IMG/VR virus record: IMGVR_UViG_2541047882_000008
DNA: 20,259 bases
Strand: one strand, 5' to 3'
Origin: a virus
Lineage: Duplodnaviria; Heunggongvirae; Uroviricota; Caudoviricetes
Position numbers and translations under genes: made by a program. This document shows, in pieces, positions 4,565 to 13,403 of this stretch. Under the pieces are notes generated by a model. The model was not told the origin of the DNA. It was given only the letters and a program-made list of their open reading frames with translations, and searched no databases. Position 1 is the first letter of the stretch, and each line of letters begins with the position of its first letter.

Positions 4565-4728
4565 ACATCCCGCGTTCTTCCCTCCGAACAGGACGATATT
4601 GTAAATTCACTTAATTACGAGGGCATTGCAGTAATTGAGTTGCAGTTTTACCACTTTCCTGACAGTGACAGACTGCGTGTTGGCTCTGTCACAGGCTAAA
4701 TAGTTTGAATGATTAGCAGTTATGGTGA

Positions 4729-4935
4729 TCAGTCAACCACCAGGGAATAATCCTTCATATTATTATCGTGCTTCACCAACGCTGCCTCAATTGCTCTGAA
4801 TGCTTCCAGAGACACCTTATGTTCTATACATGCAATTACAACATCAGGGTAACTCATAGAAATGGTGCTATTAAGCATATTTTTTACACGAATCAGATCC
4901 ACGGAGGGATCATCAGCAGATTGTTCTTTATTCAT
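4729..4935 (-). CDS. ybcW: Small prophage protein YbcW-like (68 aa)
   Basis: 68-aa ORF in the position and orientation of DLP12 ybcW. Confidence 0.55.
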
Positions 4936-5220
4936 TTTGTCGCTCCATGCGCTTGCTCTTCATCTAGCGGTTAAAATATTACTTCAAATCTTTCTGTATG
5001 AAGATTTGAGCACGTTGGCCTTACATACATCTGTCGGTTGTATTTCCCTCCAGAATGCCAGCAGGACCGCACTTTGTTACGCAACCAATACTATTAAGTG
5101 AAAACATTCCTAATATTTGACATAAATCATCAACAAAACACAAAGAGGTCAGACCAGATTGAAACGATAAAAACGATAATGCAAACTACGCGCCCTCGTA
5201 TCACATGGAAGGTTTTACCA

Positions 5221-5631
5221 ATGGCTCAGGTTGCCATTTTTAAAGAAATATTCGATCAAGTGCGAAAAGATTTAAACTGTGAATTGTTTTATTCTGAACT
5301 AAAACGTCACAACGTCTCACATTATATTTACTATCTAGCCACAGATAATATTCACATCGTGTTAGAAAACGATAACACCGTGTTAATAAAAGGACTTAAA
5401 AAGGTTGTAAATGTTAAATTCTCAAGAAACACGCATCTTATAGAAACGTCCTATGATAGGTTGAAATCAAGAGAAATCACATTTCAGCAATACAGGGAAA
5501 ATCTTGCTAAAGCAGGAGTTTTCCGATGGGTTACAAATATCCATGAACATAAAAGATATTACTATACCTTTGATAATTCATTACTATTTACTGAGAGCAT
5601 TCAGAACACTACACAAATCTTTCCACGCTAA
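5221..5631 (+). CDS. ybcV: YbcV-like prophage protein (136 aa from the internal Met; ORF track starts upstream at 5098)
   Basis: Translation [43 protein letters not shown]... recalled as DLP12 YbcV. Confidence 0.6.
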
Positions 5632-5921
5632 ATCATAACGTCCGGTTTCTTCCGTGTCAGCACCGGGGCGTTGGCATAATGCAATACGTGTACGCGCTAA
5701 ACCCTGTGTGCATCGTTTTTAATTATTCCCGGACACTCCCGCAGAGAAGTTCCCCGTCAGGGCTGTGGACATAGTTAATCCGGGAATACAATGACGATTC
5801 ATCGCACCTGACATACATTAATAAATATTAACAATATGAAATTTCAACTCATTGTTTAGGGTTTGTTTAATTTTCTACACATACGATTCTGCGAACTTCA
5901 AAAAGCATCGGGAATAACACC

Positions 5922-6215
5922 ATGAAAAAAATGCTACTCGCTACTGCGCTGGCCCTGCTTATTACAGGATGTGCTCAACAGACGTTTACTGTTCAAAACA
6001 AACCGGCAGCAGTAGCACCAAAGGAAACCATCACCCATCATTTCTTCGTTTCTGGAATTGGGCAGAAGAAAACTGTCGATGCAGCCAAAATTTGTGGCGG
6101 CGCAGAAAATGTTGTTAAAACAGAAACCCAGCAAACATTCGTAAATGGATTGCTCGGTTTTATTACTTTAGGCATTTATACTCCGCTGGAAGCGCGTGTG
6201 TATTGCTCACAATAA
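5922..6215 (+). CDS. bor: Bor lipoprotein (serum-resistance-associated outer membrane lipoprotein, 97 aa)
   Basis: Signal peptide plus lipobox LITGC; sequence and length match lambda Bor; placed opposite to the lysis genes as in lambda. Confidence 0.8.
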   Translation: MKKMLLATALALLITGCAQQTFTVQNKPAAVAPKETITHHFFVSGIGQKKTVDAAKICGGAENVVKTETQQTFVNGLLGFITLGIYTPLEARVYCSQ

Positions 6216-6246
6216 TTGCATGAGTTGCCCATCGATATGGGCAACT

Positions 6247-6708
6247 CTATCTGCACTGCTCATTAATATACTTCTGGGTTCCTTCCAGTTGTTTTTGCAT
6301 AGTGATCAGCCTCTCTCTGAGGGTGAAATAATCCCGTTCAGCGGTGTCTGCCAGTCGGGGGGAGGCTGCATTATCCACGCCGGAGGCGGTGGTGGCTTCA
6401 CGCACTGACTGACAGACTGCTTTGATGTGCAACCGACGACGACCAGCGGCAACATCATCACGCAGAGCATCATTTTCAGCTTTCGCATCAGCTAACTCCT
6501 TCGTGTATTTTGCATCGAGCGCAGCAACATCACGCTGACGCATCTGCATGTCAGTAATTGCCGCGTTCGCCAGCTTCAGTTCTCTGGCATTTTTGTCGCG
6601 CTGGGCTTTGTAGGTAATGGCGTTATCACGGTAATGATTAACAGCCCATGACAGGTAGACGATGATGCAGATAACCAGAGCGGAGATAATCGCGGTTACT
6701 CTGTTCAT
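6247..6708 (-). CDS. Rz: Spanin inner-membrane subunit Rz (i-spanin)
   Basis: N-terminal TM segment, coiled-coil body; Rz1 embedded in +1 frame; follows the endolysin gene. Confidence 0.8.
6306..6488 (-). CDS. Rz1: Spanin outer-membrane lipoprotein Rz1 (o-spanin), fully embedded within Rz in another frame
   Basis: 60-aa ORF with lipobox VVGC and proline-rich mature region, nested in Rz. Confidence 0.7.
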
Positions 6709-7202
6709 TGCTGACCCCACAAACAGATTTCACGCTCAATCTCACGACGAGTCATGAGACCTTTCCATTGCTTACCGCCAGCATATGTCCAGCGACGTAG
6801 CTGATCACATGCGCCTTTGATATCGCCCTGGTTTATTTTGCGAAGAAGCGTCGATGTTCTGAAATTGCCAGCACCCACGTTGTAAACGAATGAGTAAAGA
6901 GCGCCGCGCGTTGTTTCCGGTATATCGACTTTGATGTACGGGTTAATTTGTCTGGCGACAGTGGCAAGGTCTTTATTCAAGAGTGCTTTGCATTCTGCTT
7001 TGGTATACGTTTTACCGAGCATGATGTCTTTTCCGGTGTGTCCGTGACATACAGTCCATACGCCAACGATATCTTTGTATGGTACGTAGCTGACACCTTC
7101 CAGACCATCGTTACCACTTGGGCCAGTAATTAACACTGATGCTATAGCAATTGCTCCGCCACCAATAGCAGCAGCAACGGCTTTTCGTAATGATGGAGGC
7201 AT
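6705..7202 (-). CDS. R: Endolysin R, lysozyme family, with N-terminal signal-anchor-release (SAR) hydrophobic segment (phage 21 / DLP12 RrrD type)
   Basis: Gly/Ala-rich weakly hydrophobic N-terminus [18 protein letters not shown] followed by a lysozyme-like body; ATGA overlap with the S stop. Confidence 0.8.
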
Positions 7203-7417
7203 TATTCACCTCTCGCAGCCTTGCGCTTATCTTCTTTAATCTTGAAATAAAGGTTTGTCAGGTACGTCAGCAGGCCAAATACCAGGCTACCCAGCACACC
7301 TATTGCTGCCCACTGTGAGGGCGTGACTTTATCGAGCAGCTGTAAAAACCAGTAACCGGCACTACCTGCTGAGGTGCCATAGGCGACACCCGTTGTTAAC
7401 TTATCCATGGATTTCAT
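7202..7417 (-). CDS. S: Holin S of the phage-21 pinholin type, with dual-start motif MKSM (antiholin Met1 / holin Met4); ORF track extends to 7462 via a non-ATG start
   Basis: Translation [71 protein letters not shown] closely resembles S21 / EssD. Confidence 0.8.
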
Positions 7418-7544
7418 AACCCCACCTCGCAGACAAAGCGGGTGTAAATTGAGGGAATACAACGTATCGCAAAAAAGCAGAAACGTAACAGACTCGGAGT
7501 CAGTGAATAACTCAGGTATTGGGTTATCAGCTAATATCGAGACT

Positions 7545-7575
7545 CAAAAAATGGAAAAACCCGCTCGACGGCGGG
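7545..7575 (-). terminator. Rho-independent terminator upstream of S on the late-gene strand; candidate tR'-like terminator
   Basis: Hairpin CCCGC-TCGACG-GCGGG followed on the - strand by a U-rich tract (TTTTTCCATTTTTT). Confidence 0.45.
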
Positions 7576-8004
7576 TTTAAGCTGTGTGACGAAGTAACCA
7601 CTCTTAACAGCATAACCAATTTTTTACGTACGTAAACCACTAAATGATATTTGCGAGAATGCTACCGAGTATTGAAAACACCACTACAAATACATAAGCA
7701 AATCTCAACAAATAACCAACAAATAATTTCCAGCGTTATTTTTAGCTGGTTTAAATTGAATCTTCAAATTATAGAGCACTTATAAATAACAGCCATTAAT
7801 ATAAATTGGCTAATAGATTTATTTTTATTCAGCCAAGAGCCATGAATAGGATTCGATAGAAAAAGTTCAGATAAAAATAGAGATCTACTTCACAAATCAA
7901 ATGAGAAACCAAAACTTACATCTTGAAATAATCACATTGATTAGATGAATATTTATCGCGCAGTGACATCATTTTTTAATAATAGTTCAAAAAAAGGGCT
8001 CACG

Positions 8005-9087
8005 ATGAAAAAATTAACAGTGGCAATTTCTGCTGTAGCTGCATCAGTACTGATGGCGATGTCTGCTCAGGCAGCTGAAATTTATAATAAAGACAGTAAC
8101 AAGCTGGATCTGTACGGGAAAGTTAATGCTAAGCACTACTTCTCCTCTAATGATGCAGATGATGGTGATACTACTTATGCCCGTCTTGGCTTCAAAGGTG
8201 AAACCCAAATCAACGATCAACTGACTGGTTTCGGTCAGTGGGAATATGAATTCAAAGGCAACCGCGCTGAATCTCAAGGTTCCTCCAAAGATAAAACCCG
8301 TCTTGCCTTCGCTGGCCTGAAATTCGGTGACTACGGCTCCATCGATTATGGCCGTAACTACGGTGTAGCATACGATATTGGTGCATGGACCGACGTTCTG
8401 CCAGAATTCGGTGGCGATACCTGGACCCAAACAGATGTATTCATGACTGGTCGCACCACAGGTGTTGCAACTTATCGTAACAATGACTTCTTTGGTCTGG
8501 TTGATGGTCTGAACTTTGCTGCTCAGTATCAGGGTAAAAATGACCGCACTGACGTAACTGAAGCTAATGGTGATGGTTTCGGTTTCTCCACTACTTATGA
8601 GTATGAAGGATTCGGTGTAGGTGCAACCTATGCTAAATCTGACCGCACTAATAATCAGGTTATCTACGGTAACAACAGCCTGAATGCATCTGGTCAAAAT
8701 GCTGAAGTATGGGCAGCTGGTCTGAAATATGATGCGAACAACATCTATCTGGCTACCACCTATTCTGAAACCCAGAACATGACTGTTTTTGGTAATAACC
8801 ATATTGCCAACAAAGCACAAAACTTCGAAGTAGTTGCACAATATCAGTTCGACTTCGGTCTGCGTCCGTCCGTTGCTTACCTGCAATCTAAAGGAAAAGA
8901 CTTGGGTGCGTGGGGTGATCAGGACCTGGTTGAATATATTGATGTAGGTGCAACCTATTACTTCAACAAAAATATGTCCACTTTTGTTGATTACAAAATC
9001 AACCTGATTGATAAGAGCGATTTCACGAAAGCATCTGGCGTTGCTACCGATGATATCGTTGCTGTAGGTATGGTTTACCAGTTCTAA
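8005..9087 (+). CDS. nmpC: OmpC-family general porin (NmpC / OmpD / Lc-like), phage-borne moron (360 aa from MKKLTVAIS; ORF track starts at 7945)
   Basis: Signal peptide ending [10 protein letters not shown], porin-typical beta-barrel sequence ending in aromatic YQF; located between Q and S on the opposite strand, as nmpC in DLP12. Confidence 0.8.
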
Positions 9088-10244: not shown

Positions 10245-10531
10245 GCCTTAATAACCCCCTCTTTCAGCCAGATAACCTGTGTTCTCGCCATACCTTCCAG
10301 CGCGCATTCTTTTGCATATGCAGCATCGACAAAATGTGTGCGGCGGTCGATTTCGTCGTGGCAGGCAGAACATGCAATGGTGGCAATCAGGTCTGGCGGT
10401 TTCGTACCGGTGCCGCACAATCCAGTCAGCCGGATATGTGCCAGTACAGACGTTTCAGGGTTGCCATTACATACGCCAGGGATTCTTACCTGGCATTCCC
10501 GACCACGCGCTGCTTTTCTCAAATCAGCCAT
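10241..10531 (-). CDS. ybcO: YbcO-like nin-region protein (96 aa from [10 protein letters not shown]; ORF track starts upstream)
   Basis: Cys/His-rich ~96-aa protein in the DLP12 ybcO position, ATGA overlap with rusA. Confidence 0.65.
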
Positions 10532-10694
10532 GACTCCTCCTTGCTGCCAGTCGCAACCATTTTTTATCAACCAGGCTGGCGGTATATCCGAGCAGTGTTG
10601 GTATTTCGGAAGGCTTCAGCTCCGGTTTACGCTTACGACGATTTGGTACTCTGTAGATGTGTCCGTTCATGACACGAATAAGCGGTGTAGCCAT
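10524..10694 (-). CDS. ninE: NinE-like small basic protein (56 aa)
   Basis: Manual translation [56 protein letters not shown]; overlaps ybcN stop and ybcO start as in nin operons. Confidence 0.5.
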   Translation of the reverse strand: MATPLIRVMNGHIYRVPNRRKRKPELKPSEIPTLLGYTASLVDKKWLRLAARRSHG

Positions 10695-11149
10695 TACGCC
10701 TCCTGTTTGTCGCGGAGCTGCTGGAACTCGCAGCTCTGCGGAATAGTCAGGTGGCAGCCAATATTCACCGCCCAGGCTTCAACCTTACACAGGAAGATAT
10801 ACATCTCTCCGGTATCAAGATCGGAGGTATGGCGTAACGACTGGATAGTAGTGATTTCGCCGGTTACGACATCAACCAGGTCCTTGGTTTCATAACCGAG
10901 GTATGTGTGTTTGAGAGCATCTTTTACCCATGCTGCGGTAGCGAACGATTTCCCCCTGCTGATGAGGTATTCACTGATTTCGCTGTACCACATGTGGCTG
11001 AGTGCATTCTGGGAAAGACTGCGTTTCTCACGCCACGGTTTAAGCACCATGCGAAAGCATTTTCCGTCCTCCAGATAAGGCTGGATCTGCTGGCCGATAG
11101 CGGTGAAGTTACCGCGATGCAGTTTGATGCCATCTTGTGGTAGGTTCAC
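10694..11149 (-). CDS. ybcN: YbcN-like nin-region protein (151 aa)
   Basis: 151-aa ORF recalled as DLP12 YbcN, first gene of the nin-like block. Confidence 0.65.
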
Positions 11150-11339
11150 GCTTCACCTCCGCAGAGGTCAGACGCTGGATGCAAAAAATCGCAGGTGCAT
11201 TTCTGCATCTGTGAAGGGAGAAGAGAGTTTGGATTGTATGTGCGCATAAACGTCCCCGTTTAGCGCAGAAGTCACCGGAGTTGTTCAAGCTCCGATGACT
11301 TTATTATTACGAATTGATTTTACAAAATCAAAAGGTATG

Positions 11340-11792
11340 TTAGTGACGTGGGTCTGTTATTATGCGAGAAGGGTTTCCGTATAAAACAAGGACCTTACTT
11401 CCTTGAGTAAATAACGGATCTTTGCCTTGAACAATGGTCATTAAATTCCCATTCTCAGTTTCGACAACATATTCCATGCCTGTTTGTTTTGTTGCTGAAG
11501 ATTCGATTGCTGCCCCGGCAATACCACCAATGACTGCACCACCAACGGCACCAACGATATTAGAACGAACTCCCCCACCAAGCGCAGAACCAGCGGTTGC
11601 CCCCACGGCAGCCCCAGCAGTCCCGCCTAACGCGGAAGTCCCACTGATATCAACCCCCCTAGCACTAATAACTGTACCAGCGATAGTTCGATTAACCATG
11701 CCCACAGAGCCAACAGAATAACTATTTGGCGATATATTTTGTGCGCATCCAACCAACACTAAGAGTGGAGCAATTACGAATAATCGCTTCAT
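11340..11792 (-). CDS. SlyB/PCP-family outer-membrane lipoprotein paralogue (glycine-zipper domain plus C-terminal beta domain), prophage cargo
   Basis: Signal peptide with lipobox LVGC; Gly/Ala zipper GTSALGGTAGAAVGATAGSALGGGV...GAVGGAVIGGIAGAAI; C-terminal region aligns by eye with SlyB (GMEYVVETENGNLMTIVQGKDPLFTQGSKVLVLYGNPSRI). Confidence 0.7.
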   Translation of the reverse strand: MKRLFVIAPLLVLVGCAQNISPNSYSVGSVGMVNRTIAGTVISARGVDISGTSALGGTAGAAVGATAGSALGGGVRSNIVGAVGGAVIGGIAGAAIESSATKQTGMEYVVETENGNLMTIVQGKDPLFTQGSKVLVLYGNPSRIITDPRH

Positions 11793-12349
11793 TTAGCTAC
11801 CCTAACAGGAAACATTGGACGAGAAAGATCAACACTTTCTAATGCTTGCAAGAACTGCGTTATGTTGTTTTGCACCGCGCGATTAACAGATTCGCGTGCT
11901 CGAACAATACCGTAGAATGCGTAACTGGCTGGAACAGTACCGGTAGACTCAATATCCTGCGTATATATAATATCACCATTCGCACGGTTGATTATTTCAT
12001 ACCTTGCAATTGCTTTAGTTGTCATTGAAACACCAAAAGCAGGAACGTCAAGAGCCAACACTTTAACATTTAAGCTAACCGTATTTGGTGAACTATCACG
12101 AAAAATAGTCATTCGGTCGAGTGCTTCCTGCAAAGATTCACGCCAAATTGGAGTTATAGCCTCCATACCAGCAGTGATATCCCCTTTCTGCTCATCTGGA
12201 CGAGCAAGTGATACCGTTAATGACTTAATTTCAGCATCTATTTTTTTCTGGCTAACTCCCACGTTAGGTGTTGAAAAATTCAATGGTGGCACACTAGCGC
12301 AACCTGTTAAAGAACCAATAATCATGGCTAATAATATTATCTTCTTCAT
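11789..12349 (-). CDS. Lipoprotein of unknown function (186 aa), translationally coupled (ATGA overlap) to the downstream SlyB-like gene
   Basis: Signal peptide MKKIILLAMIIGSLTGC with lipobox; AT-rich codon usage; 4-nt overlap with the next gene. Confidence 0.6.
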   Translation of the reverse strand: MKKIILLAMIIGSLTGCASVPPLNFSTPNVGVSQKKIDAEIKSLTVSLARPDEQKGDITAGMEAITPIWRESLQEALDRMTIFRDSSPNTVSLNVKVLALDVPAFGVSMTTKAIARYEIINRANGDIIYTQDIESTGTVPASYAFYGIVRARESVNRAVQNNITQFLQALESVDLSRPMFPVRVAK

Positions 12350-12605
12350 AAATTTACCTTATTGTTATAACCAAAGGAATTATAAAGTAAAAAAGTTCAC
12401 TATCACTAGCCATTAACGACATCAATTTCAGAGAAACATGGTACTCATTTCCACAAATTTGACACAAGTCATTTTCACCTACATATTCCATCATACTTGA
12501 TGCATATGTTATTGAAGCCTCTATCCTATCCGTTCATAATAGCAATAGTTACCCGGGTGATAGTACCTCTATGATTACTCGTCTTTCTGATTGATTGGAT
12601 TAAAT

Positions 12606-12797
12606 ATGCGCGCCAAAATTTATCAACTTTCGTTATGGATATTTATTTCGTTTCTAGCGATCTATGCCTTTATTATCTATAAAGGTTCTTATATTGGAGT
12701 AGCATTGCATCAAATTGCTTGGATCATCATTATTGCCTCTGGCTTGATTGCTAGGCTAACTAAACCAAAGCAAAAACCAATTTCGTCCAATAATTAG
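12606..12797 (+). CDS. Putative small membrane protein with two predicted TM helices (63 aa from the ATG; ORF track starts at a TTG at 12591)
   Basis: Two hydrophobic stretches (LSLWIFISFLAIYAFIIY, IAWIIIIASGLIA); AT-rich; weak ribosome-binding site, so coding status uncertain. Confidence 0.3.
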   Translation: MRAKIYQLSLWIFISFLAIYAFIIYKGSYIGVALHQIAWIIIIASGLIARLTKPKQKPISSNN

Positions 12798-12956
12798 ACA
12801 TGTATTAAAAAAATGATATTTTTATGTACATAGTCTATTGAAAATTGCCGCGATAAAATGCCAACACCCGCTTCATCGCGGCACTCTGGCGACACTCCTT
12901 GAAAATCAGATTCGTGCTCACCTTTCCTTCCCGTTCTTCCCTGGTAGCGAACCGGT

Positions 12957-13403
12957 AATCATCCGATCTGCGTTACCGAGTGGATGGATGAATGCCGCCG
13001 CGAACCATTCAAAACCCGCGAAGGCAGAGAAATTACGGGGCCGTGGCAGTCGCATCCCAAACGGATGTTACGGCATAAAGCCATGATTCAGTGTGCCCGT
13101 CTGGCCTTCGGATTTGCTGGTATCTATGACAAGGATGAAGCCGAGCGCATTGTCGAAAATACCGCATACACCGCAGAACGTCAGCCGGAACGCGACATTA
13201 CTCCGGTTAACGATGAAACCATGCAGGAGATTAACACTCTGCTGATTGCCCTGGACAAAACATGGGATGACGACTTATTGCCGCTCTGTTCCCAGATATT
13301 TCGCCGCGACATTCGCGCATCGTCAGAACTGACACAGGCCGAAGCAGTGAAAGCTCTTGGATTCCTGAAACAGAAAGCCACTGAGCAGAAGGTGGCAGCA
13401 TGA
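12957..13403 (+). pseudogene. bet: 5'-truncated bet (lambda Red-beta recombinase), only about the C-terminal 148 codons present
   Basis: Translation ...NHPICVTEWMDECRREPFKTREGREITGPWQSHPKRMLRHKAMIQCARLAFGF...[11 protein letters not shown] matches the lambda Bet C-terminus; upstream sequence unrelated and no in-frame start for the N-terminal domain. Confidence 0.8.

Follow-up and report, generated by a model that had tools for sequence, protein, structure and literature searches.

A SlyB-like lipoprotein and its predicted partner form a conserved gene pair carried by temperate phages and proteobacterial chromosomes

Results

A pair of predicted outer-membrane lipoproteins

The IMG/VR record IMGVR_UViG_2541047882_000008, a 20,259-nt caudoviricete sequence that we refer to in its entirety as the window, carries on its minus strand two adjacent lipoprotein genes encoding proteins of 186 and 150 aa. 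The 150-aa protein is a diverged SlyB, the 186-aa protein represents a new family with a modelled LptE/PqiC-type fold, and the two genes almost always occur together. The explanation that we favour, and to which we give about an even chance, is that they constitute a self-contained operon of two cooperating outer-membrane lipoproteins that phages have captured and that alters or reinforces the outer membrane of the lysogen.

The pair was singled out in an original prediction made from the window's sequence. Both lipoprotein open reading frames (ORFs) named there exist, their ATGA overlap is present in the sequence as gtagctaaATGAagcg, and the region is AT-rich as described: the GC content is 0.397 over the cassette and 0.322 over its leader, against 0.50-0.53 in the flanks. 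Each protein begins with a signal peptide and lipobox, MKKIILLAMIIGSLTG followed by C and MKRLFVIAPLLVLVG followed by C. The lipobox of the 186-aa protein is LTGC, with the cysteine at position 17, and that of the 150-aa protein is LVGC, with the cysteine at position 16; in both, the +2 residue is Ala. In E. coli, lipoproteins that lack Asp at +2 are sorted to the outer membrane. Both proteins lack this Asp and would therefore be expected in the outer membrane.

The 150-aa protein resembles SlyB from end to end

In a phmmer search of PDB sequences, residues 2-149 of the 150-aa protein aligned with residues 3-155 of SlyB (PDB 7ojf) at E=1.3e-14. An AlphaFold2 model of the protein (mean predicted local distance difference test, pLDDT, of 73) comprised a strand, helices at residues 55-71 and 75-101, and further strands, that is, a two-helix hairpin flanked by β-structure. 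The sole significant Foldseek match of this model in the PDB was 7ojf_A, chain A of the SlyB13-BamA complex (E=4e-8, template-modelling (TM) score 0.57-0.61, 27% identity). Pfam PF05433 scored 21.1 bits, below its cut-off of 24.2, and many close relatives carry PF13488/PF05433. The protein falls in phrog_13877, annotated as 'unknown function'. Among 45 relatives from several classes, C16 is invariant and mean column identity is 64%. Because the homology is end to end and SlyB is the only significant fold match, the protein is a true member of the SlyB family, and it falls in a distinct, tightly conserved subfamily. The original assignment to the SlyB/PCP family is thus upheld by both the sequence and the fold searches.

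The 186-aa protein has a predicted LptE/PqiC-type fold

The 186-aa protein had no match beyond its signal peptide among Pfam, NCBIfam and PDB sequences, and neither it nor 72 diverse relatives fell in a Pfam family. It belongs to phrog_12521, also of 'unknown function'. Homologues are numerous: a word-indexed search returned 512, and an exhaustive search yielded 965 clusters at 50% identity. The longer forms among the 965 are extended at the C-terminus by unrelated sequence, with no fusion to SlyB among them. According to an AlphaFold2 model (pLDDT 87, predicted TM score 0.80), the elements are ordered beta-alpha-beta-beta-beta-alpha, and the modelled fold is a two-layer α/β sandwich of the LptE/PqiC(DUF330)/PelC/CsgG type. 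Outer-membrane lipoproteins with this fold bind lipopolysaccharide (LPS) or lipids, or assemble into rings beneath the membrane. On the basis of the model and the profile searches, the protein represents a new family with an LptE/PqiC-type fold. No gene for a cognate partner of such proteins (LptD, PqiAB/MCE, PelB or CsgEF) lies beside the 186-aa gene, whose only constant neighbour is the SlyB-like gene.

The lipobox cysteine is the sole invariant column among 73 diverse relatives. The best-conserved part of the protein is the segment that follows the anchor, PPLNFSVPNVG.S..K.DAELKS, which forms a tether of the type C-x-x-PPLNFSVPNVG. As this segment is the most conserved and yet is modelled as coil, it is likely a binding motif.

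Database names for the family were also considered. Newer runs of the NCBI Prokaryotic Genome Annotation Pipeline (PGAP) call the 186-aa protein a 'YajG family lipoprotein'. This identity was not reproduced: none of 73 members matched the YajG profile (PF03923, Lipoprotein_16) at E<=0.01 and the protein of the window did not match it at E<=1, while E. coli YajG, used as a control, matched at 3.4e-52. NCBIfam PRK11627 gave E=0.17. A profile-profile alignment (hhalign) of the family with YajG covered 52 N-terminal columns, comprising the signal peptide, lipobox and first strand, with a probability of 92-93%; the YajG alignment used was of low diversity, its relatives being at least 85% identical. 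No ampG synteny was found at the 186-aa loci. In NCBI, UniRef and the phage PhiR30_1 (coding sequence XSB42265.1), members of the family (P0001, P0003, P0021, P0041 and others) are named 'UDP-N-acetylglucosamine acyltransferase'. We take this to be a misannotation because the protein, a lipoprotein of LptE/PqiC-type fold, matches no acyltransferase profile.

The two genes are linked across Proteobacteria

To survey the pair, we compiled 49 loci from species-representative genomes and 35 viral loci from IMG/VR. The SlyB-like gene followed the 186-aa gene on the same strand, within 0-70 nt, in 45 of the 49 genomic loci and in 32 of the 35 viral ones; this range of gaps holds at all loci other than that of the window. 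An apparent exception in Luteimonas proved to be a gene-calling miss. The pairwise identities of the two families are correlated (r=0.88 over 59 loci), and both families therefore move and diverge together. In their frequency of adjacency and their co-divergence, these data support the claim of the original prediction that the 186-aa protein is a dedicated partner. All-against-all clustering of flanking ORFs revealed no third conserved gene, the recurrent clusters being shadow ORFs or lineage synteny.

The hosts of the pair include Klebsiella oxytoca, Edaphovirga, Serratia, Xanthomonas, Stenotrophomonas, Lysobacter, Luteimonas, Bordetella, Comamonas, Cupriavidus, Massilia and Azospirillum, as well as two metagenome-assembled genomes, one of a Desulfobulbaceae and one of a Chthoniobacteraceae. 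The range thus spans Alpha-, Beta- and Gammaproteobacteria, Desulfobulbaceae and Chthoniobacteraceae. Identity between classes is ~60% and the distribution is patchy, which together point to horizontal spread. In a separate observation from two Photorhabdus loci (L077 and L080), an ORF of tandem 'VHCRTGSLE' units, indicative of a DNA repeat array, lies ~1.5 kb 3' of a solitary 186-aa homologue.

Temperate phages carry the pair at several positions

Among complete E. coli genomes, 280 of 5426 contain the pair. All of these copies are chromosomal and at least 99% identical, 279 are full length, and the three records inspected all place the pair in a DLP12-like prophage. One of 50,697 GenBank phages carries it. 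The plasmid collection contained no full-length homologue, only three partial matches of less than 30% identity.

The original prediction had proposed a survey of other prophages, and several unrelated phages were found to carry the pair. In E. coli the pair lies between ren and ninB. In four prophages (L033, L035, L036 and L038), it starts 43-50 bp after a same-strand gene for a CI-type repressor with HTH_3 and Peptidase_S24 domains and is oriented divergently from the cII-like and replication genes; phage lambda has rexAB at this position. At other loci (L037, L041 and L042-44), the opposite strand carries a CI-like gene 1.8-2.6 kb downstream of the pair. The pair also occurs between the tape-measure gene and gpM of a Pantoea-type siphovirus, and in the nin region of a Salmonella lambdoid prophage that is crowded with toxin-antitoxin modules. 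In this Salmonella enterica prophage (L095/L096, ~4700-8800), YdaS/YdaT, ParE/PaaA2, MazEF, YoeB/YefM and HigBA surround the pair, and the region resembles an accessory or defence hot spot. The features of a phage moron are represented by these four distinct positions, by the other cargo that K-12 carries in the same slot and by the deviant GC content, with a promoter at candidate level. The positions beside the repressor gene and in hot spots argue for use of the pair by phages in the lysogen.

Whether the pair is prophage cargo or a chromosomal locus, a question raised by the original prediction, depends on the host. In E. coli it is exclusively prophage cargo, while in many other Proteobacteria it occupies ordinary chromosomal neighbourhoods. 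Among the non-phage settings are a K. oxytoca locus next to umuDC and SRAP and a Bordetella island that carries toxin-antitoxin genes. The 135 nearest neighbours in the 49 genomes belong to 101 Pfam families, with S24/HTH_3 represented in two. These non-phage neighbourhoods argue for a general envelope function over a phage-specific one. The commonest neighbour family is the TonB-dependent receptor, with six occurrences in a Stenotrophomonas synteny block. In the S. maltophilia complex (L054, L056, L058, L062-L064 and L071), a stable chromosomal block has the pair directly 3' of a same-strand gene for a TonB-dependent receptor of ~720 aa. This adjacency may reflect a functional link to an outer-membrane barrel or just synteny.

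The cassette occupies the ren-ninB slot of a DLP12-like prophage

The window represents a defective lambdoid prophage of the DLP12 type, integrated beside ybhC in E. coli, and its DNA matches that of E. coli strain PEC1009 at 100%. Read on the minus strand, in the direction of pR, the order is ren remnant, 186-aa gene, 150-aa gene, a 33-aa ylcH-like ORF, ybcN (ninB), ninE, ybcO, rusA, ylcG, quuD, porin, essD-rrrD-rzpD and bor. The plus strand carries the bet remnant and exo, and continues to xis, int and ybhC. The features of the cassette and its borders are collected in Table 1. According to blastn, homology to K-12 around the cassette is confined to 10500-11333 and 12862-12959, and the intervening slot of K-12 DLP12 contains emrE-ylcJ-ybcK-ybcL-ybcM.

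Table 1. Features of the lipoprotein cassette and its borders in the window
Feature	Position	Strand	Basis
150-aa SlyB-family glycine-zipper lipoprotein gene, operon gene 2	11340..11792	-	ORF
186-aa lipoprotein gene, operon gene 1	11789..12349	-	ORF; Shine-Dalgarno-like AAGG 9 nt upstream
ATGA overlap of 186-aa stop and 150-aa start (translational coupling)	11789..11792	-	reads gtagctaaATGAagcg
Candidate sigma-70 promoter, GTGATA-16-TATAAT, 10/12 matches, ~30 nt upstream of the ATG	12379..12406	-	consensus scan
AT-rich leader (GC 0.32), holds the doubtful divergent ORF	12350..12861		composition
Doubtful divergent ORF, 63/68 aa	12606/12591..12797	+	ORF scan
Variable cassette relative to the K-12 DLP12 backbone	11334..12861		blastn of window against K-12
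ren 3' remnant, upstream border of slot	12835..12957	-	PGAP annotation of identical sequence in PEC1009 and JNQH498
bet 3' remnant (RecT-type)	12957..13403	+	annotation and comparison with PhiR30_1

The original prediction had placed the cassette in the slot of the prophage immunity region. Comparison with Escherichia phage PhiR30_1 (PV340558.1; 47.4 kb; propagated on E. coli C), which carries an identical cassette, indicates that this placement was wrong. In PhiR30_1 the order is cI, cro, cII, O, P, ren, the 63-aa ORF, the 186-aa gene, the 150-aa gene, ninB, ybcO, rusA, ylcG, Q, porin, S-R-Rz and bor. By sequence comparison, then, the cassette belongs between ren and ninB (ybcN), where it stands alongside a complete immunity region. 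Over 10500-12959, the window and PhiR30_1 are collinear (99.5%), after which the window switches into bet. Relative to the phage, it has lost 6.37 kb (2020-8390 of L009), from the N-terminus of bet to that of ren, and with it gam, kil, cI, cro, cII, O and P. At the junction (12957-12959), the 3' portions of bet and ren are joined. The cassette seems to occupy the immunity slot because this separate deletion removed the immunity region.

The original prediction had also included a divergent small membrane protein in the unit. The corresponding ORF of 63/68 aa is present, but dinucleotide shuffling of the AT-rich leader produced an equally long ORF in 12-17% of cases. It had no match in Pfam, PHROG or NCBIfam, was not called by PGAP in the annotated records and is annotated in PhiR30_1 only. 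It occurs in E. coli copies of the pair and is missing from every non-E. coli copy. As its length is no greater than chance and it lacks conservation, we rejected it as part of the unit.

The promoter listed in Table 1 is a candidate only, since such sites number six in the region against 4.6 expected from shuffles. No terminator belonging to the cassette was found. Three stable hairpins lie just 3' of the 150-aa gene (11240-11345, minus strand; minimum free energy -36.7 kcal/mol, z=-7.2 against shuffles). They belong to the DLP12 backbone common to K-12, upstream of the ylcH-like ORF, and for this reason are not the cassette's own terminator; nor are they a classic terminator, as no U-tract follows them.

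Elsewhere in the window, the 33-aa ylcH-like ORF (11146-11247, minus strand) overlaps the start of ybcN, is a hypothetical protein in RefSeq and had no family match. A perfect PhoP-box-type direct repeat, TGTTTAGGGTTTGTTTA, lies at 5853-5869 on the plus strand, 53 nt before the start codon of bor (5922-6215, plus strand). It is the only zero-mismatch PhoP-box match in the window, in contrast to the box-less SlyB-like cassette. The borD gene of K-12 is PhoP-regulated, and we presume that the box upstream of bor is known biology. A spanin or lysis role for the pair was also considered and rejected: the pair lies outside the lysis cassette, and essD-rrrD-rzpD are present elsewhere.

Discussion

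SlyB has recently come to be understood as a scaffold that walls off nanodomains of lipid and protein in the stressed outer membrane. It oligomerises via its glycine-zipper hairpin into rings that enclose patches of phospholipid and LPS together with β-barrel proteins under outer-membrane stress, and its paralogue YfgH appears to act similarly (bioRxiv 10.64898/2025.12.22.696046; 10.64898/2026.06.08.730324). Encapsulation of outer-membrane proteins and lipids by SlyB rings under stress is likewise ascribed to Janssens et al. 2024 in the passage of PMC12502783 that cites it (see also bioRxiv 10.64898/2025.12.22.696046).

In the explanation that we favour, the 150-aa protein, as a diverged SlyB, would embed its glycine-zipper hairpin of helices in the outer membrane and assemble as rings around lipids and β-barrel proteins; ring formation is proposed because SlyB makes such rings. 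The 186-aa protein would be a dedicated accessory subunit, its α/β domain, borne on the short conserved tether, docking against the SlyB-like assembly from the periplasm. In this position, it may bind lipid or LPS, or it may organise the ring. The operon would be an ancient, horizontally mobile envelope module of Proteobacteria that temperate phages captured repeatedly as a lysogen-expressed moron. Its most likely effect would be to alter or reinforce the outer membrane of the lysogen, a lysogenic-conversion trait in the class of Bor, Lom and TraT; the benefit may be tolerance of stress, serum or antimicrobial peptides, or it may be exclusion. A conserved SlyB subfamily that is almost always accompanied by an LptE/PqiC-shaped lipoprotein would imply a previously undescribed two-component version of the SlyB mechanism. 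Literature searches with the accessions of the two proteins, PhiR30_1 and glycine-zipper prophage lipoproteins returned nothing relevant. The presence of the pair in at least four temperate-phage lineages, in some beside the repressor gene, makes it a candidate lysogenic-conversion or exclusion trait in ~5% of complete E. coli genomes.

Several observations weigh against this explanation. The case for an interaction between the two lipoproteins comes from their linkage, and operon linkage alone would also yield co-divergence. A minority of 186-aa homologues, in Photorhabdus and at loci L042-44, L085 and L090, have no SlyB-like neighbour. The 150-aa protein is only ~27-30% identical to SlyB. 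The operon promoter is a consensus match, and a PhoP-box search near the cassette gave two-mismatch matches at the level of chance, unlike canonical slyB. Finally, recent spread accounts for the near-identity of the copies in E. coli, which therefore says little about selection.

A different role, in superinfection exclusion or receptor blocking, would have the pair sequester or modify an outer-membrane receptor or a DNA-entry route, in a manner resembling Cor, Llp or SieA. The location of the pair directly 3' of a CI-type repressor in four prophages, at the rexAB position, is consistent with such a role, as is its occurrence in nin-region accessory hot spots beside toxin-antitoxin modules. 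In addition, porins and BamA are among the outer-membrane proteins that SlyB encloses (PDB 7ojf title; bioRxiv 10.64898/2025.12.22.696046), and the prophage of the window itself encodes a porin and Bor. The pair nevertheless often stands in ordinary chromosomal contexts with heterogeneous neighbours, including the stable Stenotrophomonas locus, a PADLOC search of the pair gave no match, and a single GenBank phage has it. Moreover, the ~60% identity that it retains across classes is unlike that of fast-evolving exclusion proteins. Overall, we consider exclusion rather unlikely. More specific, and in our estimation improbable, is a hetero-oligomeric outer-membrane ring in which a SlyB-type belt and an LptE/PqiC-fold subunit form a two-chain counterpart of the TraT 'cork', deployed by phages from the repressor operon against incoming phages, conjugative DNA or complement.

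As a two-chain TraT analogue in the wider sense, the pair would co-assemble an LptE-like 186-aa core and the hairpin of the 150-aa protein into a hetero-oligomeric 'cork' that confers surface exclusion, complement resistance or both. The TraT monomer consists of an LptE-like core and two transmembrane helices, and assembles as a decamer; mobile elements co-opted it from chromosomes (bioRxiv 10.1101/2025.05.27.656304; PMC11733297). The obligate linkage of the two genes fits this proposal. TraT was the second-ranked Foldseek match of the SlyB-like model, but that match was non-significant (E=0.04, TM score 0.28). The likeness in fold to TraT is weaker than that to DUF330, PelC or LptE; we regard the proposal as quite improbable. 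Least credible, and in our view highly improbable, is that the two proteins are accessory factors for the prophage porin (NmpC/OmpD-type) or decaying passengers without function in E. coli. In this prophage, as in PhiR30_1, a porin gene does lie 2 kb from the pair, and the prophage of the window is defective. Other loci of the pair, however, have no porin neighbour, 279 of 280 E. coli genomes retain both ORFs intact, and both families are strongly conserved.

Comparison with known systems

The closest relative of the 150-aa protein is SlyB (PCP) of E. coli, a PhoPQ-induced glycine-zipper outer-membrane lipoprotein (PDB 7ojf/7ojg). The two share the lipobox and the order of β-strand, helical hairpin and β-strand. 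They differ in sequence, as noted above, and the 150-aa protein falls in a separate subfamily, lacks a PhoP box and is phage-borne in E. coli. Canonical slyB is monocistronic beside slyA (bioRxiv 10.64898/2026.06.08.730324), whereas the SlyB-like gene described here is always preceded by a partner gene. The 186-aa protein resembles YajG in size, lipoprotein status and N-terminal segment; YajG and SlyB both co-purify with LptDE (PMC12065857). In modelled fold it resembles the PqiC/YmbA-type DUF330 proteins (XCC0632, PDB 2iqi; PqiC, 8q2c), LptE and PelC, and it does not belong to their sequence profiles.

Plasmids use TraT for surface exclusion and serum resistance (PMC11733297; bioRxiv 10.1101/2025.05.27.656304). 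The TraT of F-like plasmids is one polypeptide, whereas the pair distributes an LptE-like core and the helices over two lipoproteins; neither protein showed sequence similarity to TraT, and neither combines both parts in one chain. The prophage outer-membrane morons Bor, Lom, Cor and Llp are lysogen-expressed outer-membrane proteins encoded at variable lambdoid positions, and bor lies in the same window. The pair would resemble them in location and, if expressed in the lysogen as we infer, in timing. These morons are single genes, unrelated to the pair in sequence and fold, whereas the pair is also widespread outside phages.

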